This document shows positions 7,605-41,576 of a DNA stretch of 64,000 nucleotides, piece after piece (position 1 is the stretch's first letter; each line of letters starts with the position of its first letter). Under the pieces are notes generated by a model. That model was not told the DNA's origin and did no database searches. It was given only the letters and a program-made list of their open reading frames with translations. The stretch is from assembly GCA_945865815.1 (NCBI GenBank), contig CAMBFR010000002.1, positions 30,308-94,307 on the forward strand. Reading direction: 5' to 3'. This DNA comes from Candidatus Sulfopaludibacter sp. SbA3 (lineage in GTDB: Bacteria; Acidobacteriota; Terriglobia; 20CM-2-55-15). Made by a program: the position numbers and the translations under genes.

Positions 7605-8471
7605 TCAATCGCCCCTGAGCTTGCGACGGATCTCGACCTCGCTCGGCGTGACCTGCTTCACCGTCGTCCCCATCATCACGTCAATTTCCCTACACCGTTT
7701 TCGCAATATATCCATTGCGAGTACCTCGAGGCTCGATTTTTGGTCGGTTCCCCACATGTCGTGGGACAAAGTGATATGCCTTTCAACGACCATTGCGCCC
7801 AATGACACTGCCAGGACGGTCGGTTCGAGGTCCGGTTCGTGGCCGGAATAGCCGACAACGCAGCCATATCTTTCTTTGAGAAACGGGATCAACGAAAGAT
7901 TGAGTTCCGCCCGAGGCGTCGGATAACTCGAATTTGTGTGCAATACAACCGGCTTGACGCCTTTCGACATGATCAGATTAATTGCCTGGTCGACTTCCTT
8001 GAGGTCTGACATGCCGGTCGATACCACCAGAGGCCTTCCTGATGATGCTGCTTCAGAAACGAGTTCATGCTTTGTCAGCATAGCGGATGGGATCTTGAGG
8101 AACGGTACGTCGTAATCGAGCAAGAACTGAAGGCTGTTCATGTCCCAGATGGAAGCGGTCCAATCCAGTGGCTTTTCTCGGCAATAACGATCAATGTCGT
8201 CGTAATCGCTCTTGCTTAGTTCCACCCTTCGTTTGTATTCCAGATAGGTCATGTGGCCCCAGGGTGTGTCACACGGTACGCTTTTTTGGTGCTCCGGAAC
8301 TGCTTTGTCGGGATCGCGCTTTTGAAATTTGGCGCAATTCCAGTTGCAAGCATTGACGGCGTCAATGAGCTTTTTCGCGATACCAAGATCGCCGTTGTGG
8401 TTGATTCCGATCTCACCAACAAAATAAGGAACGGTTAGATTCTCAAAGATTGTATTCATTTGCTGCTCCAC
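7605..8471 (-). CDS. NeuB-family (N-acetylneuraminate synthase-like) 2-ulosonic acid synthase without SAF domain
   Basis: FVGEIGINHNGDLGIAKKLIDAVNACNWNCAKFQKR matches the NeuB/PseI/LegI TIM-barrel N-terminus. At 288 aa it is too short to carry the C-terminal SAF domain. Confidence 0.7.
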   Translation of the reverse strand: MEQQMNTIFENLTVPYFVGEIGINHNGDLGIAKKLIDAVNACNWNCAKFQKRDPDKAVPEHQKSVPCDTPWGHMTYLEYKRRVELSKSDYDDIDRYCREKPLDWTASIWDMNSLQFLLDYDVPFLKIPSAMLTKHELVSEAASSGRPLVVSTGMSDLKEVDQAINLIMSKGVKPVVLHTNSSYPTPRAELNLSLIPFLKERYGCVVGYSGHEPDLEPTVLAVSLGAMVVERHITLSHDMWGTDQKSSLEVLAMDILRKRCREIDVMMGTTVKQVTPSEVEIRRKLRGD

Positions 8472-8687
8472 TCCTTACCAGGCGGTCCATCCGCCATCCA
8501 TTCTGAGAACGGTACTGCTGCTATGGCGACAAACATCTCCAACCAGAATTCCACGAGCGGTAATAATTCGCGAACATTCATGATTCGTCTGAGAGGCGTG
8601 TGGCGAGAATCAGATTCGGAAAAAGACGCATCCGGTGCGTTTGTAACTGCGCCAGGCTCAATGAATTTTACTCGAAGAGTGAATCGT

Positions 8688-11365: not shown

Positions 11366-12466
11366 TTACCCTGGAACCACCTGCCGACTCCTGGATTCGT
11401 CCAAATAGCTGTGCAGCTTGACCTGATCACACCGCTCGGCACACTTGTGACCTGCAGGAAATGTGCCGGTGATATGCATACGCCGAAACTCTTTATACTT
11501 TTCACCGTTCCAGATGTCTTCCAAGGACATGTCTTTAATGTTTCCGAACGAAAGTTCGGCGTCATAGTCCTGAGTACAAGGCACCACATCTCCGTTAGCC
11601 ATCACTGTCAAAGAGGTCCATGGGAATTCACAGTACTGCTGTGCATAGTGCGACCTGTTTTCCAGGGCTTCATCTTCCTCGTGATACCAGCGGTTATCCT
11701 GACTCTTCACATAGGCGAATACATCTTTACCTTGCCAGAGATCGAGAAAATCCATGTGCATCTGGCGCGAAATGTCGTCAACTCTGAGCTCGATCATGGT
11801 AGGCGCAATAATGGTCTTATAGCCCTTGGCTGCTTTCATGTCGATGACATCTAGTATCGTCTTAAAGGCTTGCTCAAAATTGGCATGCTTTCCTCGAATC
11901 TGCTTGATGGCCTCATCGTCAAGCGCATCAATGGAGAATTTCAACACGCCAAGGCCCGCATGCATGAGTCGTTCAGCCTTCTCAACAGTAATGTTTGCGG
12001 GTACGCAGGAAAAATAGGTGGGGATACCCAGGTCTGTACAGGCCTGCACTCGGTCGAAAATATTCTTGTCCACCAGAGGCTCACCATAACCATGCAAGAT
12101 CAAATGCTTGGCAACTATATGAAAATAGAAGGCATTCTCTGAGCGCTGCTCAAAGGTAATTCCATAGGACCCTTTGACGAATTCCCAAAAACTTTCAAGC
12201 TTTTTGTCGTCATGAACCTGCGATTGACTAATTATTCTCGAAAATTCCTGACTTTCCAGCGTGGTGATCGACCTCTTCATCAAACTGGTACGCGGGCACA
12301 TCACGCACGTCATGTTGCAGGCGTTCGTGGTTTCCACATTGAAAATGTACGGCTTGGTGTTGCGCAGGGCCTCCATTTCCCTTTCCACCTCTTCAAAGCT
12401 CACATCATTATTAAGAATGCGCTCCTTCAGGTGATGCGTCGCCATGAAAAAATCAATGTCAAACAT
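11366..12466 (-). CDS. radical SAM protein with Cys-rich C-terminal (SPASM-like) region
   Basis: ETTNACNMTCVMCPRT (CxxxCxxC). The C-terminal VVPCTQDYDAELSFGNIKDMSLEDIW...HKCAERCDQ contains additional Cys clusters consistent with an auxiliary Fe-S (SPASM/twitch) domain. Confidence 0.7.
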   Translation of the reverse strand: MFDIDFFMATHHLKERILNNDVSFEEVEREMEALRNTKPYIFNVETTNACNMTCVMCPRTSLMKRSITTLESQEFSRIISQSQVHDDKKLESFWEFVKGSYGITFEQRSENAFYFHIVAKHLILHGYGEPLVDKNIFDRVQACTDLGIPTYFSCVPANITVEKAERLMHAGLGVLKFSIDALDDEAIKQIRGKHANFEQAFKTILDVIDMKAAKGYKTIIAPTMIELRVDDISRQMHMDFLDLWQGKDVFAYVKSQDNRWYHEEDEALENRSHYAQQYCEFPWTSLTVMANGDVVPCTQDYDAELSFGNIKDMSLEDIWNGEKYKEFRRMHITGTFPAGHKCAERCDQVKLHSYLDESRSRQVVPG

Positions 12467-12917: not shown

Positions 12918-14945
12918 TTGAAAACGAGGGTCTACCTCGCTGACTTAACACACACTCGAAACGGCATAATGGCTTTGACCTTTCCTATCGGCACAGCGTT
13001 CGTAGCCGCTTATGCGAAACATGTATTAGGCGACGATTTTGAATTCCACCTCTTCAAATTTCCTGAACGTTTGAGTCAGGCAATCAGTGAAAAGCCTCCA
13101 CGCGTGCTGGCACTGTCCAATTATTCCTGGAACCTGGAACTCGGCTACAAAATAAGCGCCTGGGCCAAGCGGCAAGATCCCAAGCTCATCGTCATTTTCG
13201 GGGGTCCTAACTTTCCTGTTTCGACTGATGAAAAGGCGAAATTCCTTCGGCGAAGATCGGCCATAGATGTCTATGTGGAAAACGAGGGTGAAGTGGGATT
13301 TGCCGATTTGCTCACCAACCTGGAGAATTACAATTTCGACATCGCCGCCTTTAAACGCTCCCACCAGGCGGTTGGGAACTGCACGTATCTTGACGGCAAT
13401 CAAGTAATCCAAGGCGGAATAGATCGAATTCGAGACGTCAACGCCATCCCCTCCCCTTATCTGACCGGAATTTTGGATGAATTCTTTGAATTCCCTTTGA
13501 CTCCCATGATCGAAACGACCCGGGGCTGCCCCTTCAGTTGCTCGTTTTGCGCCGATGGCCTTCCTTCAAAGAGCAAAGTAACCGCCTTTCACCACGATAG
13601 AGTTCGGGAGGAACTGAATTACATTGCCGAGCGCATCAAGAATAGTAATGAGCTTCTGATTACCGACCTGAATTTCGGGATGTATAAACAAGATTTGGAA
13701 ACGGCTCAATTCATTGCGGATATTCAAAGCAAGTTCAACTGGCCTGTGCTCATCAAGGCATCCGCAGGAAAAAATCTACCCGAACGGATCATTGAAGCCG
13801 CATCCCTTCTCAAGGGGTCGTGGGTAATCGGATCCGCAATCCAGTCTTCAGACCAGGAAGTCCTGAAGAATATCAAGCGCGCCAACATATCCGTGGACGC
13901 ATATAGAGACTTCCTGAAACTGATGAACAACCTGGACAAGAAAGCCTCGACTTTCAGCGAGATAATACTGGCGTTACCCGGGGATTCGAAGAAAAAGCAC
14001 TTCGAGTCTCTGCGATACGCGATCGACAGCGGCGTGAACCTCGTGAAGTCGTATCAGGCGATGTTGCTCATGGGAACGGACATGGCATCCCAGGCAACCC
14101 GTGTTCAGTTTGGACTCATGACTAAATTCAGAATCATGGCTGGCGGTGTCGGGGTCTATCAGTTTGGCGAAGAAGAAATTCGGGTGGCAGAAATCCAGGA
14201 GATTATTGTCGGCAGTAAGGACATGTCTTTTGAAGATTACGTGTCCTGCCGCATCATGAGCCTTATCATTGAGACGTATTACAACAACGCCCCGTTCGGG
14301 GAGATTCTTGCCGCCATGAAGGTTATGGGGCTACCGGTGTTCGATTTCCTGGTCTATCTTAACGAGCACGAGGAGTTGTATACGCCAAGAATCAAAGAAA
14401 TAGTCAAGAGGTTCGTTGATGGCACGACCAGCAACTTATACGATTCTCACGAAGAAGCGGAGTCGCTGGGCCTGAGCCCGGACCTGTTTGACCGGTATCT
14501 CTCTGGTGATCTGGGCTTCAACGAAGCGCTGGAATGTAAAGCACTCCTCTATTTTGAGATGGAGCAGACTCTGGCTGTGCTGCTGACCGCTTTAAAAATG
14601 TATCTCGCAGAGAAGGATTTGCTGACTGAAACCATCCAGGACTATTTTGATCAGCTCGGTGATTTTATTCTGTGCAAGAAGAAAGAGATCAACGAGACAG
14701 AGTTGGTTATAGAAAGACTCTTCAATTATGATTTCGGGGCAATCGATGCTCTGAATTATCAAGTCGATCCCCGAAGTATCCAACGAGCAAGCGAGGGCAT
14801 TCGCTTCACGTTCTTCCACGACCAAGAGCAAAAAAATTACATTAACCAGTCCCTCAGCCTCTATAAGAACCATCCCGGTGGAATCAGCAGGGCGCTTTAC
14901 GTGCAGAATCTGAAAAAGATGTACAGGACTTTTCAGCGCCTGTGA
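12918..14945 (+). CDS. B12-binding domain radical SAM protein with extended C-terminal domain (675 aa, TTG start)
   Basis: B12-binding region (LIVIFGGPNFP...YVENEGEVGFADLL). Radical SAM core ETTRGCPFSCSFCADG. GGGAGG SD 6 nt upstream of the TTG at 12918. Confidence 0.85.
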   Translation: MKTRVYLADLTHTRNGIMALTFPIGTAFVAAYAKHVLGDDFEFHLFKFPERLSQAISEKPPRVLALSNYSWNLELGYKISAWAKRQDPKLIVIFGGPNFPVSTDEKAKFLRRRSAIDVYVENEGEVGFADLLTNLENYNFDIAAFKRSHQAVGNCTYLDGNQVIQGGIDRIRDVNAIPSPYLTGILDEFFEFPLTPMIETTRGCPFSCSFCADGLPSKSKVTAFHHDRVREELNYIAERIKNSNELLITDLNFGMYKQDLETAQFIADIQSKFNWPVLIKASAGKNLPERIIEAASLLKGSWVIGSAIQSSDQEVLKNIKRANISVDAYRDFLKLMNNLDKKASTFSEIILALPGDSKKKHFESLRYAIDSGVNLVKSYQAMLLMGTDMASQATRVQFGLMTKFRIMAGGVGVYQFGEEEIRVAEIQEIIVGSKDMSFEDYVSCRIMSLIIETYYNNAPFGEILAAMKVMGLPVFDFLVYLNEHEELYTPRIKEIVKRFVDGTTSNLYDSHEEAESLGLSPDLFDRYLSGDLGFNEALECKALLYFEMEQTLAVLLTALKMYLAEKDLLTETIQDYFDQLGDFILCKKKEINETELVIERLFNYDFGAIDALNYQVDPRSIQRASEGIRFTFFHDQEQKNYINQSLSLYKNHPGGISRALYVQNLKKMYRTFQRL

Positions 14946-15325
14946 ATACTGTCGGGGATATTCTCTACCCTCTCAGCTTGATTTCGGTGGCTCAAACCTT
15001 CCCGAAGCGCAATCTCCTGAACAGTCTTCATCAGTTTCTGTTCAATGCGTTCGAGTTTCACGTACATGCGATACATGACAAAGAACACAAATACGATAGC
15101 CATTCCGAAAAACGTTCCCAAGCCGGCTCTACCTCCCCCAAACGCATTAATCAGGATGTCAATCAGCGCCGGAAACACAGCAACGACAACGATGGCTATC
15201 CAGGTGGCGGTCCAAAATACGAACATTTGCAGGGATTCAAGACGAGAACGGAAGTCCACATAGCTCTTGGAAATTGCGATCACGGCGAGCAGCACGGAGA
15301 ATATCTGCGAAATGAAGACAAACAT
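14933..15325 (-). CDS. DUF2304-like small membrane protein (GT2-associated)
   Basis: 130 aa with three predicted TM helices followed by a charged coiled tail (MYRMYVKLERIEQKLMKTVQEIALREG). Start abuts the stop of the upstream GT2 (15325 vs 15327). This architecture typically accompanies polyprenyl-phosphate GT2 genes. Confidence 0.5.
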   Translation of the reverse strand: MFVFISQIFSVLLAVIAISKSYVDFRSRLESLQMFVFWTATWIAIVVVAVFPALIDILINAFGGGRAGLGTFFGMAIVFVFFVMYRMYVKLERIEQKLMKTVQEIALREGLSHRNQAERVENIPDSIHRR

Positions 15326-15326
15326 T

Positions 15327-16058
15327 TCAGGTTCGCCGCATCAATCGCATCAATAAGCCGAGAATCAGATTGACTCCGTTCAGGAAATGCTGGCCCTTGG
15401 CGCGCGAGTAATCCGTGTAGACAGGTTTGACGGGAACTGATTTGTAGCAGAGATTCTTTCTGTAGATTTCTCCGACAATCTCAGAACATATCTCGTAGCC
15501 CGCCGATTCAAGTTCCAGTCTTTCAACGGCGCTGCTCGTGAAGACCTTGAAGCCGGATTGGGAATCGGAAACGATCTTGCCGTAAACTAGGTAAGTCAAC
15601 GCGTTGAGAAGCAAGTTGGCGGCTATCCTCGTTAATGGCATACCGGCCGGCTCGAGAATCCGGCTGCCGATGACTACGTCGAAATGCCCTTCATTCAGGC
15701 ACCGAACCAGTGGCTCGATCTCTGCGGGATTGTGCTGGCCATCCGAATCCATAGTTACGATGACATCCGCTTCAAGCGCACGCGCAGCCTTCAACCCTGT
15801 AATGGTAGCTGCTCCCGCGCCGAGATTAACAATGTGCCGGATAACCACAGCGCCATGACGCCGGGCTATTTCGCCGGTCGCGTCTGCGGAGCCATCGTCG
15901 ACAACGATGCTGAAAACGGACATCCCCTCGATGTTGGCAGGAATTAATGCCAGAACCTGTCCAATGACGGCAGCCTCGTTGCAGGCCGGCATCACAACCG
16001 CAAGAAGGCCGGAACTGATGGGCAGGTCCGCTTTTTCCGTGGACTCAAGGTTAATCAC
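15327..16058 (-). CDS. GT2 family glycosyltransferase (polyprenyl-phosphate sugar synthase, DPM1/GtrB-like, soluble form)
   Basis: LAVVMPACNEAAVIGQVL, IVVDDGSADATGEIA and MDSDGQH (DxD region) typical of GT-A dolichyl/undecaprenyl-phosphate glycosyltransferases; 243 aa. Confidence 0.8.
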   Translation of the reverse strand: MINLESTEKADLPISSGLLAVVMPACNEAAVIGQVLALIPANIEGMSVFSIVVDDGSADATGEIARRHGAVVIRHIVNLGAGAATITGLKAARALEADVIVTMDSDGQHNPAEIEPLVRCLNEGHFDVVIGSRILEPAGMPLTRIAANLLLNALTYLVYGKIVSDSQSGFKVFTSSAVERLELESAGYEICSEIVGEIYRKNLCYKSVPVKPVYTDYSRAKGQHFLNGVNLILGLLMRLMRRT

Positions 16059-16168
16059 AAACGTATCCCTCGGATGAGCCTACAATCTGATACATATGCC
16101 AGCATCCAAATTCTATGCGCCAATTCTAGAACGAATTGCTGTGCTAGCGAACGAAATGAGCGTTTAAG

Positions 16169-17647
16169 TTAGGGCGATATGCTCTCAGACTCACTCGCCG
16201 TCCTTCCCAACCTCAGGTAAGCGTAGAAGCCAACCAGGGCTACGAACAGAATCAGCGAAAGCATATACGCTGCTTTCACCGTGTCCTGGTACGACTCATC
16301 ATTTGCCATTGTAAGCAACTGGGGACACAGGGCAAACAGTGGCAGGTTATTCGAATTCCCGGTCCAGTACGTACCGGTAGTTGGAAGCGCCCAGAGCCAT
16401 GAGTTCCGAACGAGCATGGCGAAAAGACCCAGCAATAGAACCCATTTGACAGCCACACGAAGGCTTGCGTTTCCGATTCCTTCGAAGACCTGATCAAATC
16501 CAGAGGCAGCGAGCAATACGAGATATAGGATAAGGAATATCATCATGCGGGCCGGATATTGATCCAATGCCGAAATAGGGATCACATACTGGAGAAGTAG
16601 CCAGGCCACCTGGAGGACGGACGCGAGGAGACAAACAAGGATAACCAGCATTGCACAGACAAATGGTTTTGCCCTTAACGGATTAGGCGTTTGTGTTCCA
16701 CTCCACGCTGGATAAGCAATGGCTACGGCAATGAGGGCGAGCCCGAGCCAGCCAAGATATGCTGTGCGCTCCCACTCAATACCATCTGCGATAACCGGGT
16801 ACGGAACCAATAATGATTGAAACAACTGGGGGATAATTGTGAATGGATAAGTAAAGCTACCGAAGCCGCTGGATATCAGACGTCCGCTTTCGGCATACCC
16901 GCTGTAGAAGAGAACCGGGATGAACAGGTACGCAGCCACTGAGAACGCGATTCCGAATCCAAGTCCCACCCATGGAAGCTGGCGACGGTGAAACAGAAAA
17001 ATGCAGGTAGTGCCCAGTAGAATGGGTTGAAGAACGTGAAGGGCACCGAACGAAATAATCAGGACCAATAATCCAGCCCACTCCAGTGTCAGCATCAGCT
17101 TCTGGCGGCGGTTAGCGTGCTCCGACTCCGCAAAGTTTGCCCAAAGCCAAAACACCCAGGGGATAAGGAAATAGCCTCCCAGATCTCCGATATGTCCAAC
17201 ACCAGCCTTGGCGCTGTAAAAGCCGTTAAACACAAAGAGGACTACTGCGAAAGTCGCGGCAGCGACAGAAAGATTCAGCCTGTGAATCCACCTCATAATG
17301 CCCAGGAAACCGATCGAATAAAGCAACACGACGTGCAGGACAATCCACTGAGAAACGCGGAGCCATCCAAGAGCAACGAGGTCTGGTGAAGTGAGTATCC
17401 ACGGTGCAGCCAGAAGACGAAAATTGTTCAGATAACTGCCCCGGACGCTTTCGTCACAAAAGAACGATGCGTGATAAGGAATCTGACCTGTACGAATGGC
17501 TGTCTGGGTGACCGTCAATATTGACTCGTACAGCATCCAGTCAAAAGTGTGCGCATTGCCCCAGTCCAAAAACAGCATCCAGTAGACTGCTCCAAGAATG
17601 TAAATACTCAGAAGCCAGATCCATTTGGAGTCAAGCTGGCGCAGCAC
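16169..17647 (-). CDS. polytopic integral membrane protein, putative GT-C-type glycosyltransferase
   Basis: 492 aa with more than 10 hydrophobic helices and aromatic-rich loops. No soluble-domain motifs. Placed between two polyprenyl-P GT2 genes. Confidence 0.45.
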   Translation of the reverse strand: MLRQLDSKWIWLLSIYILGAVYWMLFLDWGNAHTFDWMLYESILTVTQTAIRTGQIPYHASFFCDESVRGSYLNNFRLLAAPWILTSPDLVALGWLRVSQWIVLHVVLLYSIGFLGIMRWIHRLNLSVAAATFAVVLFVFNGFYSAKAGVGHIGDLGGYFLIPWVFWLWANFAESEHANRRQKLMLTLEWAGLLVLIISFGALHVLQPILLGTTCIFLFHRRQLPWVGLGFGIAFSVAAYLFIPVLFYSGYAESGRLISSGFGSFTYPFTIIPQLFQSLLVPYPVIADGIEWERTAYLGWLGLALIAVAIAYPAWSGTQTPNPLRAKPFVCAMLVILVCLLASVLQVAWLLLQYVIPISALDQYPARMMIFLILYLVLLAASGFDQVFEGIGNASLRVAVKWVLLLGLFAMLVRNSWLWALPTTGTYWTGNSNNLPLFALCPQLLTMANDESYQDTVKAAYMLSLILFVALVGFYAYLRLGRTASESESISP

Positions 17648-17697
17648 GTTGGCGGTTTCAGCGGGACGGATCAGATAGACCTCAAGGGCGCGTCATG

Positions 17698-19254
17698 TCA
17701 CAGCGCCGCGGCGTCATGATGCTCGTGATGAGTCCTTCGGCCACTTTCGCCTTTCTTGCGACGAACAATGGCGAACAGGCGCTCTTCGAAAACAGTATCT
17801 GATCTGTGCAGGGAATAGTTCCGAACGGAACGCAGAACATGGCTGGGATGGAGCAGGTAGCTTAGGCCATACGAGAGAGACATACCCAACAGACGATAGA
17901 AAGAGATTTCCAGTGGGCCGACATTTTCGCAGTAGTTTGTATGCTGCTTCAGATCCATGAACGTCATCAGGGACCGAAAATATGCACGATTCATATCTGC
18001 GATGGCGCCGGTCTTACGAAGATACTCGTACAGTTCCGAGCCAGGGTAAGGAGAATAATTATAGATAGCCGTGTCGTCGACGCCGCTCCACGCAAATTTC
18101 ACGGCGCACCACACGGTCTGGAGCATGTCGCGGCGAGTTTCATGCGGAAAACCGATAATCAGGTTGCACTTGACAAATATTCCATTCGATTTCGCATGCT
18201 TGATGGATTCGAAAAGACGAGGAAGCGCAACCTTCTTCTTGATCAGCTTCAACGTTCGAACTGAGCCGCTTTCCGGAGCGTACGTAACGTTCATACATCC
18301 GGACGTAGCCATTTCCCGTAACACTTCTGAATCCATTGCTTCGGAACGGGTGCCGCTTGGCAACTGCCACGTAACCTTGAGATCGCGACTCTTCATCTCT
18401 TTGCAGAATGCGAGAATCCAGTCTCTCTTGATAATCGCCGTCAGGTCAAAAAAGTCGATGTTGTCGGCCTTATACGTTCTTACATAGTGCTCAATCTCGT
18501 CGACTACCATCCGGACGTTACGCATCAGGTATCGAGTAGTCCACATCAAAGGACTGGAGCAGAACGTACACTGGTAGGGACAGCCCCGGGTGGCCAGGAT
18601 TGGCATACTGCGACCGCGCTCTACTCCGTGCCCCTGCCCGGCCTTGAAGTAAGGCTCGAGATTGAACAAGTGCCAGGCTGGCCGTGGAATTTCATCAACG
18701 GCCCTGATTCGGGTGCGCTCTGGATTCACAACCATGTTTCCGCTTGCATCGAGATACCGAATTCCGTTGACGTCAGAGAGTGAGATCTTGCCATCAAGCC
18801 AGTCTGCCCAGTCGACGATGGTTTCATCGCCTTCTCCGACCGCTACAAAATTCACAGCAGGAAAACTTCGGAGCACATACTCACCAGCCGCAGTTGCGTG
18901 CTCCCCTCCCAGGATTATGGGAACATCGGGAAACCGATCGCGGATGGCGCTGATCATGTCTTCGATATGCGGCCAATCCTGGGAAAACATCGCCGAAATG
19001 CCAATGCCATCTGGCCTCTCGGTGATTCGCTCGACAATGCGGGGGATCGAAAGACCGCGGTACCTGACACGGGAGTCGTAGGAGACTCCTATGTTTTCAA
19101 TGTCTTCGCCAAGCGCATCCAGGTTTGAAACCTGATGCCCACTCTCGATCAGATTGGCGCTCAAGTAAGCGAGAGCTAAAGGCATGGTGACAGGAGCGCT
19201 ATAGCTGGAACTGGAAAACACCGCAGGGGGCCTGATAAGTAAGATACGACTCAT
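17698..19254 (-). CDS. B12-binding domain radical SAM protein
   Basis: B12-binding region (PIILGGEHATAAGEYVL...VAVGEGDETIVDWA). Radical SAM core ILATRGCPYQCTFCSSP. 518 aa. Confidence 0.85.
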   Translation of the reverse strand: MSRILLIRPPAVFSSSSYSAPVTMPLALAYLSANLIESGHQVSNLDALGEDIENIGVSYDSRVRYRGLSIPRIVERITERPDGIGISAMFSQDWPHIEDMISAIRDRFPDVPIILGGEHATAAGEYVLRSFPAVNFVAVGEGDETIVDWADWLDGKISLSDVNGIRYLDASGNMVVNPERTRIRAVDEIPRPAWHLFNLEPYFKAGQGHGVERGRSMPILATRGCPYQCTFCSSPLMWTTRYLMRNVRMVVDEIEHYVRTYKADNIDFFDLTAIIKRDWILAFCKEMKSRDLKVTWQLPSGTRSEAMDSEVLREMATSGCMNVTYAPESGSVRTLKLIKKKVALPRLFESIKHAKSNGIFVKCNLIIGFPHETRRDMLQTVWCAVKFAWSGVDDTAIYNYSPYPGSELYEYLRKTGAIADMNRAYFRSLMTFMDLKQHTNYCENVGPLEISFYRLLGMSLSYGLSYLLHPSHVLRSVRNYSLHRSDTVFEERLFAIVRRKKGESGRRTHHEHHDAAAL

Positions 19255-19302
19255 TTGGACCGCAAGTACATGGAGTTGATTGTACGCATATCGATCAAGA
19301 GG

Positions 19303-20268
19303 TCACAGTCTCTCTGTGTTGATGGTCTGAGCTACAATCGCTCCTCTTCTCGTTCGGAGTTCCTTGTATATACGGCCGACGTATTCCCCGATGATACCTA
19401 GAAAGACTGCGTTCAGAAGAATGGACGAAAGAATCAAAATAGTGGTTGTTGCAAACCCGGGCGGCCAATTCCATCCAAACACTGTTCTCGCAACTGTGTA
19501 TCCGATGATGCCGATGATCATCGAGATCGACACGATCAGGGCGGTAAAGCTGGCAAGCCGCAGCGGCACTATGGAATGGTTAAGAATTCCGTCGATGGCA
19601 AGCTTTGTCAGATTAACGAGACCAAACTTGCTGGTGCCCCGCTCACGTCCGGACCGGTCATAAGGAATCCCGTACTGCTTAAAACCCAGGGTCGCTATCG
19701 AACCCCGCAGATATGTATCCGACATGTGTTTCAGTTCCTCCAGTATCCGCCGGTCCATGAGCCGAAAATCCCCCGCATCACGAGGCAGGCGATCTTCGCT
19801 CAGAAAATCGATGAGCCTGTAAAACAGTTTTCGAATAGCCGTGATCGCACGGCCTTCCTGGCGAGTTCTCCGAACTCCGTACACGACTGCAAATCCCTCT
19901 TCCCATTTCTCTAACAAGGCAGGGATCAGGGAAGGTGGGTCCTGGAGATCGCAATCCAGCTGGATGGCAGCGTCTCCGGTGGCATATGTGTAAGCCGTGT
20001 ATATGGAGCGCTGATAACCGAAATTCCTCGAAAGGCCGATGACCTTGACGCGCTTGTCGGACGCGAGCTGAGTGAGAATTGAAAAGGAACTATCCGTACT
20101 GGAGTTATCGGAAAACACGATCTCAAACGAGTACTGCGGAAGCCCTTCGAAAACGCGGCAAACCTCTTTGTACAAAGGGACTATATTTTCTTCTTCGTTA
20201 TAGACCGGGACAACGATCGAGATTGTTTTTCTCGTTCGTGGGTGGCTCAATGTGGATTGCCCACTCAC
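19303..20268 (-). CDS. GT2 family polyprenyl-phosphate glycosyltransferase (ArnC/GtrB-like, with C-terminal TM helices)
   Basis: ISIVVPVYNEEENI, VFSDNSSTDSS and QLDCDLQDPP (DxD), plus two C-terminal hydrophobic helices as in ArnC. Confidence 0.8.
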   Translation of the reverse strand: MSGQSTLSHPRTRKTISIVVPVYNEEENIVPLYKEVCRVFEGLPQYSFEIVFSDNSSTDSSFSILTQLASDKRVKVIGLSRNFGYQRSIYTAYTYATGDAAIQLDCDLQDPPSLIPALLEKWEEGFAVVYGVRRTRQEGRAITAIRKLFYRLIDFLSEDRLPRDAGDFRLMDRRILEELKHMSDTYLRGSIATLGFKQYGIPYDRSGRERGTSKFGLVNLTKLAIDGILNHSIVPLRLASFTALIVSISMIIGIIGYTVARTVFGWNWPPGFATTTILILSSILLNAVFLGIIGEYVGRIYKELRTRRGAIVAQTINTERL

Positions 20269-21647
20269 GGCTCTTTCTCAGCACTCAAGGAGTTTGCAAC
20301 CGAGACACCCTGTGGCGCGGGCTTCCTGAAATACGACGAGAACTGCTCGATGACATAATCGATCATTTCGTCAGTCAGCCCAGGATAGACTCCGACAAAG
20401 AAAGTGTCCCGCATGATCCGATCTGATCCGGTCAATGCTCCATGAATCCGCCTCTGGATATCCATATAGCCGGGTTGTCTCAGAATATTGCCGCCAAAAA
20501 CCAGCCGCGTTTCGATATTGCGATCTTCCAGCCATCGGATAAGTCTGGCCCGATCGGTTCCAGGCTGCACGGTTATGGGAAATCCAAATGGGGAAGGATT
20601 TGATTTTGAATCGATCTGTGGAAGCAGGAGATATTCCTGCAATGAACGAAGGCCTTCGTAGAGTCGGCGAAAGTTATGACGTCTGCGCCCGACGAAGAGC
20701 GGGACTTTTTCGAGTTGGGCTAACCCGATCGCAGCCTGAAGGTCAGTGGGTTTCAAGTTGTAGCCAATATTCGAGTAGATGTACTTGTGATCGTAACCAA
20801 ACGGCAGTTCGCCCAGTTGCCACTCGAATCGCTTCCCGCAGGTATTTGAAACTCCCGGATCGCACCAGCAATCCCGGCCCCAGTCCCTTATGGACCTTGC
20901 CGTCTTTTTGAGCCGAGGATGATTGATAACGACGCCTCCGCCTTCGCCCATCGTCATCTGGTGAGCCGGATAGAAGCTCAAGGATGACATTGCGCCGAAC
21001 GTGCCGGCCAGTTGCCCGTCGTAGGTGGCTCCCAGAGCGTCGCAGCCGTCTTCGAGCAGCCACAACCGATGCCTGTCGGCGATGGCTTTGAGCGCATCCA
21101 TGTCACAGGGAAAACCAAGCGTATGCGGGACGAAAATAGCCCGGGTCCGCGGGCCTACTGCTCCTTCAACCTGTAACGGATCGACGTTGTAATTGCCAGG
21201 CTCACAATCCACGAAAACCGGAACGAGACCGTTCTGAATGACGGGTGCCAAGGTAGTCGGAAACGTGACGGCGGGAGTAATCACCTCATCACCAGGCACC
21301 AATGGCAGCGGATCGTCTTCTCGCAAAAAGGACTTCAGCTCCCGTGAGCATAACGTTGCGACCATCAGCAAATTTGCGGCCGATCCTGAATTCACCGCAA
21401 CAAAGTCGTTCGAACCGAAGAAGCGCTGCATTCCATTTTCGAATTTGTCGGCGTACGGACCTGCGGTCAGCCAGAAATCCAGGGAGGCATCAATTAAGTT
21501 CACCATCTCGCGTTCATCGTAGACCCGGCCCGAATAATTAATTCGACTCTTGCCTGGACTGAAAGAGGGACGCTGGTGCGCAGCATGGAAGTACGTACGG
21601 ACCATTTCAAGGATCTCTGTCTTCAACCCGTCGGCATCTTTACTCAT
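20265..21647 (-). CDS. rfbH: CDP-6-deoxy-D-xylo-4-hexulose-3-dehydrase-like (RfbH/DdhC/E1) PMP-dependent enzyme
   Basis: N-terminus LKTEILEMVRTYFHAAHQRPSFSPGKSRINYSGRVYDEREMVNLIDASLDFWLTAGPYADKFE closely follows the RfbH/E1 N-terminal signature; 460 aa; ATGA overlap on both sides. Confidence 0.8.
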   Translation of the reverse strand: MSKDADGLKTEILEMVRTYFHAAHQRPSFSPGKSRINYSGRVYDEREMVNLIDASLDFWLTAGPYADKFENGMQRFFGSNDFVAVNSGSAANLLMVATLCSRELKSFLREDDPLPLVPGDEVITPAVTFPTTLAPVIQNGLVPVFVDCEPGNYNVDPLQVEGAVGPRTRAIFVPHTLGFPCDMDALKAIADRHRLWLLEDGCDALGATYDGQLAGTFGAMSSLSFYPAHQMTMGEGGGVVINHPRLKKTARSIRDWGRDCWCDPGVSNTCGKRFEWQLGELPFGYDHKYIYSNIGYNLKPTDLQAAIGLAQLEKVPLFVGRRRHNFRRLYEGLRSLQEYLLLPQIDSKSNPSPFGFPITVQPGTDRARLIRWLEDRNIETRLVFGGNILRQPGYMDIQRRIHGALTGSDRIMRDTFFVGVYPGLTDEMIDYVIEQFSSYFRKPAPQGVSVANSLSAEKEP

Positions 21648-23011
21648 AATGCCTCCTTAACCACAGCATAACCCCGGCCCACTGAACGATACGTAACATC
21701 CGAGGAAAAGTATGTTTCATTCAACAAGTTTCGCGCATCGATGATGATGGGGTGGGCCATCAGTTTCACCAACTCACCCCAGTTCAGTTCTCGAAATTGC
21801 GGCCATGCTGTCGCTATAACAGCCGCATCAGCACCGCGCAAGACATCCTCGACGCTGCTCCGAAGCGCAATATCGATACTACCAGCCCGGACTTGAGCAA
21901 CTGAAATGAGTGGATCGTGTGCACAGATTGCCGCACCCGCTTGATGCAGTCGCCGGGCAATCGAAATTGCCGGTGAGTCCCTGAGATCATCGGTGCCCGG
22001 CTTGAATGCCAGACCGAGCAGTGCAATGCGCTTGCCCTGAACTCCTCCGGCGGTTTGCTGGAGTAATCCAACGACCTGATCCGGTCTTCTTTCGTTCACA
22101 TTCATCACCGCGTCAAGCAGCGGTGTCCGCGCCTGGACTCGGGAAGCAAACTCTCGCAAAGCGTTAACGTCCTTCGGTAAGCAGCTTCCACCAAACCCGC
22201 AACCCGCGCGCAGATAATGAAGAATCCCTGGACGAACAGCTTCACCGCTCACAGAAGTTGCAAATCGGCGGTCCAGGTGAACGCCGTCCATCACGGTTTC
22301 AATATCACTGTCAGGCATGGCCTCACAGAGGCCGGCAATTTCGTTGCTGAACGAGATCAGCGTCGCCAGCAATGAATTCGACGTATATTTGATCAACTCC
22401 GCATTTCTCAAAGTGGTTCGCAGTTTGGGGCACCCAAAGTTCGCATAGAGTTGCATCAGCACGTCACCGGACTTTCGATTCCACTCTCCAACAATAATGC
22501 GGTCGGGATTCATGAAATCATCGACAGCCGAGCCTTCGCGGAGGAATTCCGGATTCATGCACAATCCAAACTGTCCCGCCGTCATACCCGATTCCCGTTC
22601 CAGTACCTGGCGGACAAACGTATCCGTCGTTTGAGGCTGTACCGTGCTTTTCACAACAACGACGTGATAGGAACCGTGTTTCCGCAATTCGCGACCAATG
22701 CTGCTCGCCGCCGATGTCAGGAACCGCAAGTCAACAGTATCGCCAGACTGCGGAGTTCCTACTGCGATTATCGAAAGCGCGCTACCGGTCAACGCACCCG
22801 CGGAGTCCGTGGCCAGAATCAGTGTCTTTCGTTCAAGGCCGCGACGGATCAGTTCATTCAGGCCAGGCTCGTGGAATGGGGCTTTGGCTTGTTGAATAGC
22901 CGAAATTCGCTCGGTCGACACGTCAACACACCTTACGATGTGTCCCAACGACGACAGACAAGCCGCCGTCACCAAACCGACGTAGCCCGCGCCAAAAATC
23001 GTAATCTGCAT
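21644..23011 (-). CDS. nucleotide-sugar dehydrogenase (UDP-glucose/GDP-mannose dehydrogenase family)
   Basis: MQITIFGAGYVGLVTAACLS (NAD-binding GxGxxG) and catalytic region GFGGSCLPKD; 455 aa. Confidence 0.85.
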   Translation of the reverse strand: MQITIFGAGYVGLVTAACLSSLGHIVRCVDVSTERISAIQQAKAPFHEPGLNELIRRGLERKTLILATDSAGALTGSALSIIAVGTPQSGDTVDLRFLTSAASSIGRELRKHGSYHVVVVKSTVQPQTTDTFVRQVLERESGMTAGQFGLCMNPEFLREGSAVDDFMNPDRIIVGEWNRKSGDVLMQLYANFGCPKLRTTLRNAELIKYTSNSLLATLISFSNEIAGLCEAMPDSDIETVMDGVHLDRRFATSVSGEAVRPGILHYLRAGCGFGGSCLPKDVNALREFASRVQARTPLLDAVMNVNERRPDQVVGLLQQTAGGVQGKRIALLGLAFKPGTDDLRDSPAISIARRLHQAGAAICAHDPLISVAQVRAGSIDIALRSSVEDVLRGADAAVIATAWPQFRELNWGELVKLMAHPIIIDARNLLNETYFSSDVTYRSVGRGYAVVKEAL

Positions 23012-23013
23012 TG

Positions 23014-24120
23014 TTATCGACGGATAGTACCGTTAGCTGCCTCTGGAGAGCAGGCAGGATGGTCTGAATCCTGATAAGACCGCAATGTTCTGGTCAAACC
23101 TTCGCGAATATCCACTTCTGGCTTCCACGTACCCAGATTACGCAGCTTGGTCAGATCGGGATAACGGCGATTGGGATTGTCTGTGAGGTAGTCGCTGTCC
23201 TCACTGATGTGGTACTCGACCGTTATGCCCGGACCGGCAACCTGACACATCACATCGGCAACGCGTGAAATCGGAGTTTCCTCCGTGTCGTTCCCGACGT
23301 TAAACGCCTCTCCATTGGCATCTGAAAGCAGGACAAGCAGCATGGCTCGAATTGCGTCTCGAATGTAACAAAAGGCGCGCGTTGCGCGACCATCGCTGTA
23401 CAAGACAAGCGGCTGCCGCCGAAGCGCCTTTGATATCAGATCTGGAATGATCCGGCCGTCATCCAACCGCTGTCCCGGTCCGTAGACATTAAACGGGCGG
23501 ACCACCTTCACGGGCAGTCCGAAAAGGCGATGGTATGAAAAACAAAGCGTCTCAGCCAGTCTCTTCGACTCGTCGTAGCACGCACGAGGCCCCACGCACG
23601 AAACACTGCCACGATATGTCTCGGGAGTCGGAATGGCGTTCGGCTCAGGATCGCCGTAGATTTCGCTGCTGCTCAAGTAAAGGAAGCTTTGAGTGCCACA
23701 TCGGGCTGCCTCCAGAAGATTCCGGGTACCGTCAACGTTAACGGCTATTGTCTCGAGAGGATAACGGCGGTAGAACACAGGCGAGGCGATGCTGGCTCCG
23801 TGAATGATGTAGCCTGGCTGCGCATCCAGAGTGAGCCCCTTGCTTAAGTCGGCAGTCACGACCTGTACATCAGCCCTGTCTGCCAAATGCTGAAGCCGAT
23901 CCGGGACTCCACTCACGAAATTGTCCACGGCTATGACGCGACAGGGATCATCCAGCGCCGCATCGTTGAACGCAACTAACAGATCCACGAAGTAACTCGG
24001 CAGAAACCCGCACGCTCCCGTTACGAGGACCGTTTTTCCCGCCAACACAGACAGCGTGTCGGCCATCTGCGCCGCTACATACTGGACGTCTTCGAGAATT
24101 ACTGTAGAGATCTTTGCCAT
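23014..24120 (-). CDS. NAD-dependent epimerase/dehydratase family protein
   Basis: VLVTGACGFLPSYFVDLL Rossmann motif and YDESKR (YxxxK). Confidence 0.8.
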   Translation of the reverse strand: MAKISTVILEDVQYVAAQMADTLSVLAGKTVLVTGACGFLPSYFVDLLVAFNDAALDDPCRVIAVDNFVSGVPDRLQHLADRADVQVVTADLSKGLTLDAQPGYIIHGASIASPVFYRRYPLETIAVNVDGTRNLLEAARCGTQSFLYLSSSEIYGDPEPNAIPTPETYRGSVSCVGPRACYDESKRLAETLCFSYHRLFGLPVKVVRPFNVYGPGQRLDDGRIIPDLISKALRRQPLVLYSDGRATRAFCYIRDAIRAMLLVLLSDANGEAFNVGNDTEETPISRVADVMCQVAGPGITVEYHISEDSDYLTDNPNRRYPDLTKLRNLGTWKPEVDIREGLTRTLRSYQDSDHPACSPEAANGTIRR

Positions 24121-24122
24121 TC

Positions 24123-25109
24123 TCAGGCTTCGCTCAGCTGATCTAACAGATCCCTATGCTCACGGTACCAGTCAATGGTCCTCTGTAAGCCTTCTTCCAG
24201 GTCCACGGTTGGTTGCCATCCCAAATGCATTCTTGCCAGTTTGTTGGTTCCACTCTGAAAAAACATCTCGCCAGTCCTGTATGGAATCGCGCCAACGTGG
24301 ATGCTCGCAGGCTGGCCCAGAAGCCGATAAATGAGTTCGACTGCGGATCGCATTCTTGTTCCCTGCCCGCTGCATAGATTCAAGACGTTCCCGACCGCGG
24401 TATCGGATCCGGCGGCAAGCAGAACACCCTCGACAGCATCATCTATGTAGACAAGATCTCGCTCCTGCTCCCCGCTCGTCATGTTCATGTCTCTGCGAAG
24501 CAGACCGTTGACGATCGCACTGGGAACCAGACGAGTCGCGCGTTCCCAAGGGCCATACGGCGTAAACAGACGAATTGAGATAACCTTCAGCCCAGTTGAT
24601 CGGCCGATGGACTGTGCCAGGATTGTGCCGGCGGCCTTCGAGGCGCCATAGATTGTGGTCGGGCAGAGGCTCGATTCTTCCGAAAGTGCGCTACCCTCTC
24701 CGTACTCAAAACTTGAACCGAAATGAATGAGCCTCTCCACCCCGGCGTTGGCGCAGCCGTTGGCGATTGCAAACGTCCCAAATACGTTGGTGTGAAGTAC
24801 CGACTCGCTGGGCGTAGATGGCACGACTCCCGCTGCAGCCGCATGAAAGACTATCTGCGGCTTTGCAGCATCAAGTATTCGCGCAACACTCCCTATATCG
24901 GAACAATCACCTTCGACGACATGGAGTTCACGAGCAATATCGGCTATCCGGAAGCGATGCGAAGCCGGCCGTACCAGGACGGTTACATCTGCACCCGCAC
25001 CAAGCAGTCTCCGCGCTAAGTGTGAGCCTACGAAGCCGGTTGCGCCTGTTACGAAGACTCGACATCCTCTCCAGTCCCTCGTCGGGCGCTGGCTCACCAA
25101 ACCATCCAT
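24123..25109 (-). CDS. NAD-dependent epimerase/dehydratase family protein (candidate CDP-hexose 4,6-dehydratase or reductase step)
   Basis: VFVTGATGFVGSHLARRLL and YGASKAA (YxxxK). Position between rfbF and rfbH homologues. Confidence 0.7.
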   Translation of the reverse strand: MDGLVSQRPTRDWRGCRVFVTGATGFVGSHLARRLLGAGADVTVLVRPASHRFRIADIARELHVVEGDCSDIGSVARILDAAKPQIVFHAAAAGVVPSTPSESVLHTNVFGTFAIANGCANAGVERLIHFGSSFEYGEGSALSEESSLCPTTIYGASKAAGTILAQSIGRSTGLKVISIRLFTPYGPWERATRLVPSAIVNGLLRRDMNMTSGEQERDLVYIDDAVEGVLLAAGSDTAVGNVLNLCSGQGTRMRSAVELIYRLLGQPASIHVGAIPYRTGEMFFQSGTNKLARMHLGWQPTVDLEEGLQRTIDWYREHRDLLDQLSEA

Positions 25110-25861
25110 GGAACGTTGCCACTCTCCCAGATGCGCTCCATCAACTGCATGTCTCTCAAGGTGTCGATGGATTGCCAGAATCCTTCATGACGATATCCAA
25201 CAAGCTGTCCTTCCTCTGCAAGCCTCTGCATGGGCTCCCGCTCCCAGGAAACATCGTCGCCACTAATGTAGTTAAGGGCTTCAGGCTCAAGGACGAAGAA
25301 TCCCCCGTTGATCCAGCCTTCTCCAACCTGAGGTTTTTCTTCAAAACGGACGACCTTGTCGCCCTCAAGGCTTATGCTGCCGAATCTGGCCGGAGGCCTG
25401 ACCGCAGTAACCGTTGCCAGGCGTCCATGCTTCTTATGAAATTCAAGGAGAGAATTTATGTTGATGTTTGCAAGGCCGTCGCCGTACGTGAACATGAATG
25501 TTTCTTTGCCGAGCACCCGAGACAAACGGCGCAGGCGCCCTCCAGTCAGCGTGTTCATGCCTGTCGAAACAAGCTGGACAGTCCAGTCTTCCCGGCTGGA
25601 GTCATGCGTTTCTATTTCGCCACTTCCTAGCTTGACCGTCAGGTCGTGAGACATGTGATGGTGACTAAGAAAATAGTTCTTGATCACGTCCCCTTTGTAA
25701 CCCAGCGCAACAGCAAAGTCAGTCAGTCCGTAAGCGGAATAGATCTTCATGATGTGCCAGAGCAGCGGCTGACCTCCAATTTCGATCATGGGTTTGGGCT
25801 TCGTGAGCGTCTCTTCCTGAAGGCGAGTCCCGTATCCACCTGCTAGAATCGCTACTTTCAT
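25094..25861 (-). CDS. rfbF: glucose-1-phosphate cytidylyltransferase
   Basis: MKVAILAGGYGTRLQEETLTKPKPMIEIGGQPLLWHIMKIYSAYG is near-identical in pattern to RfbF/DdhA N-termini. MTGGRL and GDGLANI motifs present. Confidence 0.88.
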   Translation of the reverse strand: MKVAILAGGYGTRLQEETLTKPKPMIEIGGQPLLWHIMKIYSAYGLTDFAVALGYKGDVIKNYFLSHHHMSHDLTVKLGSGEIETHDSSREDWTVQLVSTGMNTLTGGRLRRLSRVLGKETFMFTYGDGLANININSLLEFHKKHGRLATVTAVRPPARFGSISLEGDKVVRFEEKPQVGEGWINGGFFVLEPEALNYISGDDVSWEREPMQRLAEEGQLVGYRHEGFWQSIDTLRDMQLMERIWESGNVPWMVW

Positions 25862-30489: not shown

Positions 30490-30491
30490 CG

Positions 30492-41575: not shown

Positions 41576-41576
41576 T

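Follow-up and report, generated by a model that had tools for sequence, protein, structure and literature searches.

The window, a 64,000-nucleotide (nt) stretch of Candidatus Sulfopaludibacter sp. SbA3 (contig CAMBFR010000002.1), contains five consecutive minus-strand genes that encode a GtrB/ArnC-like glycosyltransferase of family 2 (GT2), a radical S-adenosylmethionine (SAM) enzyme, a polytopic membrane protein of 492 amino acids (aa), a second, soluble GT2 and a small membrane protein of the DUF2304 type. We think it fairly likely that these genes, together with the cytidine diphosphate (CDP)-sugar genes upstream of them, form an operon for periplasmic, lipid-carrier-dependent glycosylation that follows the logic of the GtrB/GtrC, ArnC/ArnT, CsbB/YfhO and GacI-J/GacL systems. 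This overall logic is already known. What is new is that the polytopic partner comes from an undescribed family without a Pfam model and that a class-B (B12-binding) radical SAM enzyme belongs to the conserved set. The analysis is based on computed gene content and order, family assignments, GtrB motifs, a fold model, membrane topology and co-occurrence statistics.

A first-pass annotation, made from the DNA letters alone, had reported these five open reading frames (ORFs), and all five were confirmed to the nucleotide (Table 1). Their lengths match public gene calls on identical or near-identical contigs. In ascending order of position, the genes are separated by gaps of 1, 110, 50 and 48 nt, there are 4-nt overlaps with the upstream genes, and the block runs upstream without a break into sugar-nucleotide genes. 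The functional unit reaches upstream to at least position 25861, where the CDP-sugar genes sit, which is further than the first-pass annotation had drawn it. The GtrABC or ArnC/ArnT logic proposed there is largely right, although no GtrA-type flippase is present in the window. The naming of an ArnC/GtrB-like GT2 with C-terminal transmembrane (TM) helices, of a soluble DPM1-like GT2 next to a DUF2304 protein, and of a B12-radical SAM enzyme likewise holds on the evidence given below and in Table 1. A promoter and terminator scan of positions 14500-27500 gave a site count not above that of shuffled sequence, and therefore we make no claim on transcription units.

The 321-aa GT2 aligns over its full length (residues 15-313) with Synechocystis GtrB (5EKP) at 203 bits (E 5e-59) and, also over the full length, with three ArnC structures at 133-138 bits. 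In the alignment with GtrB, the DxD motif is matched, IQLDCDLQDPP lining up with IPIDADLQDPP so that DCD falls on DAD. The GDFRLMDR segment is identical in the two proteins, and two C-terminal hydrophobic segments coincide with the GtrB TM helices, the GEYxGRxY motif included. From this similarity, the enzyme is predicted to load a sugar onto undecaprenyl phosphate at the cytoplasmic face. Its scores lie below the NCBIfam equivalog cutoffs (PgfS, 192 against 500 bits; ArnC, 148 against 529 bits).

The 492-aa protein belongs to no described family. It has no Pfam or NCBIfam match, and a search with the family profile gave no sequence match to any chain in the PDB. Relatives that are more than 60% identical to it number three among 5.8 billion clusters. 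An exhaustive HMMER search returned 466 family representatives at E <= 1e-3, counted as cluster representatives at 50% identity and mostly 450-520 aa long. The membrane domain of 60 members was examined and had no Pfam match in any of them; a few members of the family are fused to GT2 or SAM-methyltransferase domains.

The AlphaFold2 model of this protein, built from a 121-sequence alignment, has a predicted local distance difference test score (pLDDT) of 94.1 and a predicted TM-score (pTM) of 0.93. Its secondary structure, combined with hydropathy (11-12 hydrophobic helices), gives 12 TM helices with the N-terminus inside, and Lys or Arg is present in every predicted cytoplasmic loop. The first periplasmic loop is 70 residues long and contains short helices. 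All invariant or nearly invariant residues (D36, W37, P57, G151/H152, G201/H204, G261, W292/E293, R367, W419 and Y453) are periplasmic, in the sense that they lie in a periplasmic loop or at the periplasmic end of a helix. D36, which opens the first periplasmic loop, is invariant in 60 family members and at least 90% conserved in 121. The adjoining W37 is equally conserved, and E41 is conserved among close relatives only. The GT-C signature consists of 8-13 TM helices and an acidic motif (DxD or modified) in an extracytoplasmic loop, typically the first (PMC5836110), and the 12 TM helices fall within that range.

Two further comparisons point in the same direction. A Foldseek search of the PDB with the model returned the GT-C enzymes Pmt4 (9i5k, TM-score 0.41, probability 0.92) and ALG12 (9s6t, TM-score 0.42, probability 0.91) and, more weakly, ALG9 (TM-score 0.32-0.34) and DPY19 (TM-score 0.33). 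The family profile matches YfhO-annotated proteins (E 4e-21 and 7e-11) and DUF2079 (E 1.5e-3). When aligned with hhalign, it gave 98.8% over 344 columns against the YfhO-annotated protein P0153, 94.8% over 288 columns against P0154, and 56.7% (E 1e-4) against a Microvirga plasmid 'YfhO family protein' (RefSeq; a single sequence), colinear over the N-terminal 180 columns. Four unrelated polytopic proteins that served as negative controls (749 and 571 aa from locus L017, 616 aa from L018 and 648 aa from L020) stayed below 1% and hence do not belong to the family either. Nor do we take the 492-aa protein for a Wzy, WaaL, SEDS or MOP flippase protein, since no such structure is among the 50 best-ranked Foldseek matches. 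Hence, the 492-aa protein is probably a GT-C-like transferase that is distantly related to YfhO. The GT-C-like character proposed in the first-pass annotation is supported as far as the polytopic build, the GT-C fold matches and the YfhO profile links go, and actual GT-C membership is probable rather than proven, with E above 0.1 and a TM-score of about 0.42. No transporter or flippase similarity of this protein was found, and both GT2s have DxD-type motifs, the two points on which that proposal had been made to depend.

The gene neighborhoods of homologues show which of the window genes belong together. The locus of an 82% homologue of the membrane protein (L001/L002) has the order NTP-transferase, short-chain dehydrogenase/reductase (SDR), SDR, dehydrogenase, DegT, GT2 (321 aa), B12-radical SAM (518 aa), membrane protein, GT2 (242 aa) and DUF2304, so that the whole arrangement of the window is kept. 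In L003, the locus of a 63% homologue, canonical RfbF (363 bits), RfbG (485 bits) and RfbH (711 bits) precede an SDR, a GtrB-like GT2, a B12-radical SAM enzyme and the membrane protein, and there is no soluble GT2/DUF2304 pair. The conserved core consists of the CDP-deoxyhexose genes, the GtrB-like GT2, the radical SAM enzyme and the membrane protein, because these are the genes shared by the window, L001 and L003. The triad of GT2, DUF2304 and membrane protein, for which a synteny search had been proposed, is kept in L001 and broken in L003.

More distant family members, with 23-36% identity (L007/8, L009, L010 and L015/16), are found in a different cassette, which comprises a radical SAM enzyme (513-542 aa), a UbiA protein and two class-I SAM methyltransferases, to which L007/8 and L010 add a HAD hydrolase. 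In L009, L010 and L015/16, the membrane and radical SAM genes are direct neighbors, and in L007/8 the four other cassette genes stand between them. These cassettes sit inside legionaminic-acid-type clusters from groundwater and other metagenomes. The best NCBIfam matches of the UbiA proteins are decaprenyl-phosphate phosphoribosyltransferase models (89 bits, cutoff 234), an enzyme type that, by this similarity, may offer a second route to a polyprenyl-phosphate sugar, independent of nucleoside diphosphate (NDP)-sugars. With its UbiA, radical SAM enzyme and membrane family, this cassette looks like a separate conserved system that has not been described. Its radical SAM proteins align over their full length with that of the window module at 25-28% identity (150-174 bits), compared with at most 59 bits against the other three B12-radical SAM proteins of the window, and they therefore belong to the same subfamily.

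In total, 8-9 contexts of the membrane family were sampled. A radical SAM enzyme and a lipid-phosphate-sugar maker, either a GtrB-like GT2 or a UbiA of the decaprenylphosphoryl-phosphoribose (DPPR)-synthase type, lie within a few genes of the membrane gene in seven of the eight informative ones (the window, L001, L003, L007, L009, L010 and L015), informative meaning that enough flanking DNA could be read. In the P0064 locus, the membrane protein stands at a contig end, which makes it partly uninformative. This gene context predicts that a lipid-phosphate-linked sugar is the donor used by the 492-aa protein.

The radical SAM enzyme of the module has an N-terminal B12-binding domain and the cluster motif CPYQCTFC in its translation, from which it is predicted to bind cobalamin. 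It scores far below all named NCBIfam models (the best is Sden_1168, 163 against 575 bits), its nearest solved structures reach 30-53 bits, and it belongs to a subfamily without a characterized member. This subfamily is not small: more than 6000 homologues were found at E < 1e-30, many of them 60-73% identical, in several phyla. A homologue search recovered 19 metagenome loci. In three of the five distinct arrangements (L017; L018/19/21/22; L020/23/24/25), radical SAM proteins of 72-73% identity adjoin a GtrB-like GT2 that is 41-43% identical to that of the window. The loci among these with enough flanking DNA (L017, L018, L020 and L024) also carry other polytopic membrane proteins, namely a 571-616-aa family and proteins of 640-749 aa (Table 1). 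Of the latter, those of L017 and L024 are 55% identical, and the 648-aa protein of L020 matched neither by BLAST. The 749-aa protein of L017 has a weak PMT_2 match (19.8 bits) and no PDB sequence match. L017 carries two SAM methyltransferases, and ORFs of 184-210 aa occupy the same positions in other arrangements. The linkage of radical SAM enzyme, lipid-carrier glycosyltransferase and polytopic membrane protein is frequent and extends across different transferase families, without being universal or obligatory. The first-pass view of the radical SAM gene as an unusual insertion was not borne out, as the gene is a conserved neighbor of the membrane family and of GtrB-like GT2s, and one of four B12-radical SAM genes in the window.

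The genes upstream of the module indicate what sugar may be involved. The RfbF-type and RfbH-type proteins both reach the equivalog level, as expected of a CDP-3,6-dideoxyhexose pathway. The former makes CDP-glucose, with which the donor sugar pathway probably begins, and its gene also comes first in the modules of L001 and L003. The translation of the RfbH-type gene shows the CWCDPGVSNTC (CxCx7C) motif, the gene is conserved in L001 and L003, and its 4-nt overlap with the 321-aa GT2 gene suggests translational coupling. The SDR at 24123..25109 matches dTDP-glucose 4,6-dehydratase at 134 bits and CDP-glucose 4,6-dehydratase at 79 bits, both under the NCBIfam cutoffs, and is a candidate 4,6-dehydratase, not a canonical RfbG. 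The second SDR is kept in L001. The nucleotide-sugar 6-dehydrogenase lies outside the conserved core because it is present in L001 and absent from L003. RfbF and RfbH most likely point to a donor of the CDP-3,6-dideoxyhexose type.

The remaining two genes form a unit of an already known kind, the GacI/GacJ arrangement. The best NCBIfam match of the soluble 243-aa GT2 is PpgS (146 bits, equivalog cutoff 370 not reached), followed by AglJ (107 bits), and it aligns with the Pyrococcus dolichol-phosphate mannose synthase (DPMS) structure 5MLZ at 60 bits, with DSD on DAD. The DUF2304 gene begins 1 nt downstream, the pairing expected of GacI and GacJ. Mycobacterial PpgS is a polyprenyl-phosphate-N-acetylgalactosamine synthase; GacJ, a DUF2304 protein, complexes with GacI, whose Km for undecaprenyl phosphate it lowers and whose Vmax it raises; Rv3632 stimulates PpgS in like manner; and the resulting N-acetylglucosamine (GlcNAc)-phosphate-undecaprenol is consumed by GacL, a GT-C enzyme (bioRxiv 10.1101/180810). 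By homology, we predict that the 243-aa GT2 makes a second polyprenyl-phosphate sugar, probably with an N-acetylhexosamine (HexNAc), and by analogy that the DUF2304 protein is a GacJ/Rv3632-type activating subunit of its neighbor. The pair is a separable second donor-making unit, an add-on to the conserved core, because it is absent from L003.

These observations raise the question of whether the five genes are in fact two unrelated adjacent units, the GtrB-like GT2, radical SAM and membrane protein genes on one side and a GacI/GacJ-type pair that serves a GT-C enzyme elsewhere on the other. We regard this as a real possibility that deserves appreciable weight. L003 has the first unit alone, a gap of 110 nt separates the two units in the window, and PMT_2-type GT-C genes come after the pair in L001. 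On the other hand, both the window and the 82% locus have the pair immediately after the membrane gene and in the same orientation, and the 64-kb window has no other GT-C candidate that it could serve. The two-unit reading is compatible with periplasmic lipid-carrier glycosylation and not opposed to it.

In the mechanism that we propose, RfbF would make CDP-glucose, which the SDRs and the RfbH-type 3-dehydrase would convert to a CDP-deoxyhexose, most likely of the 3,6-dideoxy type. The GtrB-like GT2 would then move the sugar to undecaprenyl phosphate at the cytoplasmic face. The B12-radical SAM enzyme would tailor the sugar while it is nucleotide-linked or, as we favor, lipid-linked, most likely by C-methylation or another radical rearrangement at an unactivated carbon. 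A flippase would carry the lipid-linked sugar across the membrane, and the 492-aa GT-C-like protein would hand it to a periplasmic envelope acceptor, with the invariant D36 of the first periplasmic loop acting as catalytic acid/base. The GacI/GacJ-type pair would make a second lipid-phosphate sugar, probably with a HexNAc, for the same or a different transferase. The identity of the sugar, the substrate and chemistry of the radical SAM enzyme, the flipping step and the acceptor are the parts of this scheme that we infer.

A lipid-linked sugar is favored as the substrate of the radical SAM enzyme because its subfamily recurs with two chemically unrelated makers of lipid-linked sugars and because it recurs in loci without CDP-sugar genes. 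Tentatively, then, it is possible that the enzyme acts on the sugar while it is attached to the polyprenyl-phosphate carrier, within a widespread and undescribed four-part system in which the lipid-sugar maker is either a GtrB-type GT2 or a UbiA protein and the transferase is either a YfhO-related GT-C protein or another polytopic protein. Somewhat less likely, in our estimate, is that it is an ordinary nucleotide-sugar tailoring enzyme, e.g. a cytoplasmic C-methyltransferase acting on the CDP-deoxyhexose, and that the operon simply collects the genes for one sugar. The setting would suit such an enzyme, as the island is rich in radical SAM genes (four B12-binding, one SPASM) among soluble sugar-nucleotide genes, no TM segment is predicted in the protein, and two contexts of a 72%-identity radical SAM lack any GT2. 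B12-radical SAM enzymes that work on nucleotide-linked substrates are known, one being Fom3, which acts on cytidylylated 2-hydroxyethylphosphonate (HEP). This explanation does not account for the recurrence of the subfamily with the membrane family where UbiA makes the lipid-linked sugar, since UbiA would use phosphoribosyl pyrophosphate (PRPP) and not an NDP-sugar. Nor does it account for the 72-73% identical radical SAM proteins beside GtrB-like GT2s in loci where neither RfbF nor RfbH was found within the 3-17 kb of DNA available per locus. From the UbiA loci and the loci lacking RfbF and RfbH, it therefore appears that the common denominator is the lipid-phosphate carrier step and not a particular nucleotide sugar.

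The 492-aa protein could instead be a flippase, another transporter or a scaffold for the lipid-linked sugar, with the true transferase encoded elsewhere. The window without a flippase gene, the statistical weakness of the GT-C fold matches and the neighboring PMT_2+TPR GT-C proteins of L001, which could be transferases, would all agree with such a role, which we nevertheless consider improbable. The Foldseek matches outside GT-C have TM-scores of at most 0.16, those of the transporters being 0.09-0.16, so that no transporter or flippase of the PDB superposes on the model (TM-score <=0.16), and there is no MOP, GtrA or SMR signature. The invariant residues cluster in periplasmic loops and not along a membrane-spanning path, and a long first periplasmic loop with an invariant Asp is a hallmark of GT-C enzymes (PMC5836110). 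Furthermore, the family profile connects to YfhO-like proteins, and no other GT-C candidate is near in L003 or in the window. That the target of the module is a membrane lipid, for instance a hopanoid as in the case of HpnI (GT2) and HpnJ (B12-radical SAM), and not an envelope glycan, is highly improbable: acidobacteria make hopanoids and the radical SAM enzyme scores 122 bits against HpnJ, but this is far under the cutoff of 578 and ranks behind other models, the 321-aa GT2 is a full-length GtrB/ArnC homologue without an HpnI match at E <= 0.01 (NCBIfam), HpnH, HpnG, HpnK and cyclase models are absent from the family scans of window genes, and the operon conserves CDP-sugar genes.

Several points weigh against periplasmic lipid-carrier glycosylation as we have described it. 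The 492-aa family has a single invariant Asp and no strict DxD. The E-values of the GT-C matches in Foldseek are 0.19-0.74, none of them <= 1e-3, and the fold match is weak. The Pfam YfhO model (PF09586) gives no match to the 492-aa protein and matches P0153 and P0154 in their C-terminal tails only. On the side of the donor, a canonical RfbG is lacking in the window, where the two SDRs score 79 and 53 bits (RfbG-model cutoff 278), the E3 reductase (RfbI) is not among the family matches of the window genes scanned, and no GtrB-type enzyme is known to use CDP-sugars. A flippase of the GtrA/GtcA, Wzx or ArnE/F type was not found in the window, either by the hydropathy screen or, for GtrA, MOP and SMR, by the family scans. 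Finally, one context of the membrane family (L013/14) has neither a radical SAM enzyme nor a lipid-sugar maker, two arrangements of the radical SAM homologues (L026; L027/28) have no glycosylation genes nearby, and all loci are metagenomic, several being near-duplicates.

The module resembles several known systems without coinciding with any of them. With GtrA/GtrB/GtrC of Shigella and Salmonella phages, and with CsbB/YfhO and GtlA/GtlB of Bacillus and Listeria, it shares a GtrB/CsbB-homologous GT2 with C-terminal TM helices in an operon with a polytopic protein that bears GT-C hallmarks (PMC5836110, PMC8035078), and the nearest annotated sequence relatives of the 492-aa family are YfhO-like. 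Unlike GtrABC, however, the window has no GtrA/GtcA flippase; the 492-aa protein lacks the large extracellular domain of YfhO (492 versus ~800 aa) as well as its Pfam match; and, in contrast to both GtrABC and CsbB/YfhO, the operon has a conserved B12-radical SAM enzyme and a CDP-deoxyhexose-like donor pathway instead of uridine diphosphate (UDP)-Glc or UDP-GlcNAc. The likeness to ArnC/ArnT, which adds aminoarabinose (Ara4N) to lipid A, lies in the full-length ArnC similarity of the GT2 and in an order of genes that runs from nucleotide-sugar dehydrogenase, SDR and DegT-family enzyme to GT2 and then polytopic transferase. Here, however, the DegT-family gene is an RfbH-type 3-dehydrase and not ArnB, the ArnA formyltransferase, ArnD and ArnE/F are missing from the window, and the 492-aa protein has no sequence similarity to ArnT or other PMT proteins.

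GacI/GacJ/GacL of Streptococcus pyogenes and PpgS/Rv3632/Rv3779 of Mycobacterium tuberculosis share with the window a soluble GT2 followed by a three-helix DUF2304 protein, but its GT-C candidate comes from a family other than that of GacL, there is no GacK (Wzx-like) flippase, and the pair is dispensable in L003. The distant relatives of the 492-aa protein that lie near UbiA, some also near a HAD phosphatase, recall the decaprenyl-phosphate-arabinose systems (UbiA DPPR synthase with Emb/Aft; TfpW of Pseudomonas), in which a lipid-phosphate sugar made without an NDP-sugar is likewise followed by a polytopic transferase. They differ in that no DprE1/E2 was seen in the relatives' loci, which have a radical SAM enzyme and two SAM methyltransferases; this UbiA arrangement is found in the relatives' loci and not in the window. 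The radical SAM enzyme itself has the N-terminal B12-binding domain and CxxxCxxC radical SAM core of GenK, Fom3, TokK, OxsB and HpnJ/HpnR, class-B enzymes that act on sugars or lipids, whereas its conserved neighbors are lipid-carrier glycosylation genes.

Among the traits shaped by lipid-carrier-dependent periplasmic glycosylation are O-antigen serotypes, teichoic acids, antibiotic resistance (Ara4N) and phage receptors. If our reading is correct, a family of ~470 representatives without a Pfam model is probably a new branch of the GT-C transferases, and there is a recurring genetic link between a B12-radical SAM subfamily and enzymes that load sugars onto polyprenyl phosphate. Homologues of this subfamily number in the thousands and come from Acidobacteriota, Elusimicrobiota, Omnitrophota and other phyla. 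For one of the many class-B radical SAM enzymes that are still orphans, the link suggests what the substrate may be, and it would also predict that abundant soil and peat bacteria, mostly uncultured, carry novel C-modified sugars on their envelopes. Should the enzyme indeed act on the carrier-bound sugar, it would be the first of the known radical SAM enzymes to have a lipid-carrier-linked monosaccharide as its substrate. A full-text search, incomplete in its coverage and hence weak as evidence of novelty, found no publication that ties radical SAM enzymes to GtrB, GT-C or undecaprenyl-linked sugars.

Table 1. Features of the glycosylation module, its surroundings and related loci (positions refer to the window unless a locus is named)
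Feature	Position	Strand	Basis or remark
DUF2304 three-helix membrane protein (130 aa)	14933..15325	-	PF10066 58 bits, cutoff 25.5; 3 hydrophobic segments
Soluble GacI/PpgS/DPM1-like GT2 (243 aa)	15327..16058	-	no TM segment; NCBIfam and DPMS alignment
12-TM polytopic membrane protein, predicted GT-C-like periplasmic glycosyltransferase (492 aa)	16169..17647	-	AlphaFold2 model, topology, family profile
Class-B (B12-binding) radical SAM enzyme (518 aa)	17698..19254	-	PF02310 58.8 bits, cutoff 32.1; PF04055 63.7 bits, cutoff 29.5
GtrB/ArnC/PgfS-type polyisoprenyl-phosphate glycosyltransferase, GT2 (321 aa)	19303..20268	-	structure alignments and NCBIfam
RfbH/E1-type pyridoxamine phosphate (PMP)-dependent NDP-4-keto-6-deoxyhexose 3-dehydrase	20265..21647	-	NCBIfam PRK15407 RfbH 626 bits, cutoff 423
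Nucleotide-sugar 6-dehydrogenase (UDP-glucose dehydrogenase family)	21644..23011	-	TIGR03026 401 bits, cutoff 190
Second SDR-family NDP-sugar epimerase, dehydratase or reductase	23014..24120	-	Pfam Epimerase 165 bits; no equivalog reached
SDR-family NDP-sugar dehydratase/epimerase	24123..25109	-	Pfam Epimerase 165 bits
Glucose-1-phosphate cytidylyltransferase, RfbF-type	25094..25861	-	NCBIfam TIGR02623 367 bits, cutoff 300
B12-radical SAM	2083-3759	+	best matches HpnJ, PhpK, ladderane-type
B12-radical SAM	5550-7535	-	
SPASM radical SAM	11366-12466	-	
B12-radical SAM, KedN5-like	12918-14945	+	163 bits
Other ORF with >=2 hydrophobic segments	41445-42047	+	inside minus-strand genes, probably spurious
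Other ORF with >=2 hydrophobic segments	61358-62743		no annotation
571-616-aa polytopic family	L017 2193-3908; L024 4895-6613; L018 2-1852		no significant Pfam match
640-749-aa polytopic proteins	L017 7496-9745; L024 10459-12381; L020 693-2639		no significant Pfam match

The window (~60 genes) is mostly one minus-strand sugar-biosynthesis island, with the few plus-strand genes lying in the first 15 kb. According to the family scans, the island includes two NeuB genes, several cytidine monophosphate (CMP)-transferases, four DegT-type enzymes, a HisH/HisF-like pair, an ATP-grasp enzyme, methyltransferases, aldolases and a 3-dehydroquinate (DHQ)-synthase-like enzyme. When every ORF of 60 aa or more was screened for hydropathy, five showed at least two hydrophobic segments, among which the DUF2304 protein, the 492-aa protein and the 321-aa GtrB-like GT2 are the credible membrane proteins. 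Wzx and Wzy proteins, ABC exporters, an initiating phosphoglycosyl transferase and an O-antigen ligase are all absent from the window. The five-gene module contains all credible membrane steps of the 64-kb island, and the many CMP- and NDP-sugars of the latter must serve cytoplasmic transferases or genes beyond the window.

The density of radical SAM genes is unusually high for a glycan cluster. Those outside the module all score far under the cutoffs of named families. The 3' ends of the DUF2304 gene and of the plus-strand gene of the KedN5-like B12-radical SAM enzyme overlap convergently by 13 nt (14933-14945). In L001 (12773-19576), a 750-aa protein (weak DUF5719) and two paralogous PMT_2+TPR GT-C proteins with 66% identity between them come after the module on the opposite strand; at this position, the window instead carries the convergent KedN5-like gene.

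Two nonulosonic-acid-type gene sets are present in the window. The first, at 39519-49196, comprises NeuB (48147-49196), UDP-GlcNAc 2-epimerase, CBS-NTP-transferase, DegT, SDR, ATP-grasp and PHP-domain proteins as well as the HisH/HisF-like amidotransferase pair (42778-44344). The second, at 7605-11200, has NeuB (7605-8471), DegT and a HAD-cytidylyltransferase fusion. Both resemble pathways for legionaminic or pseudaminic acid derivatives with an acetamidino-type modification. Six ORFs of 330-704 aa (28754-29746, 33790-35445, 36261-38375, 41577-42785, 54847-55956 and 61358-62743) have no significant Pfam match, and those of 551 and 704 aa have no NCBIfam match either; the six are candidates for new soluble glycosyltransferases (Maf-like, for example) or tailoring enzymes. 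The DHQ-synthase-like gene stands among sugar genes (59555-60637), and an HpcH/HpaI aldolase gene adjoins a transaldolase/FSA-family gene and an SIS isomerase gene at 29695-31181. Together, these genes hint at carbocyclic or chain-extended (higher-carbon) sugar chemistry.

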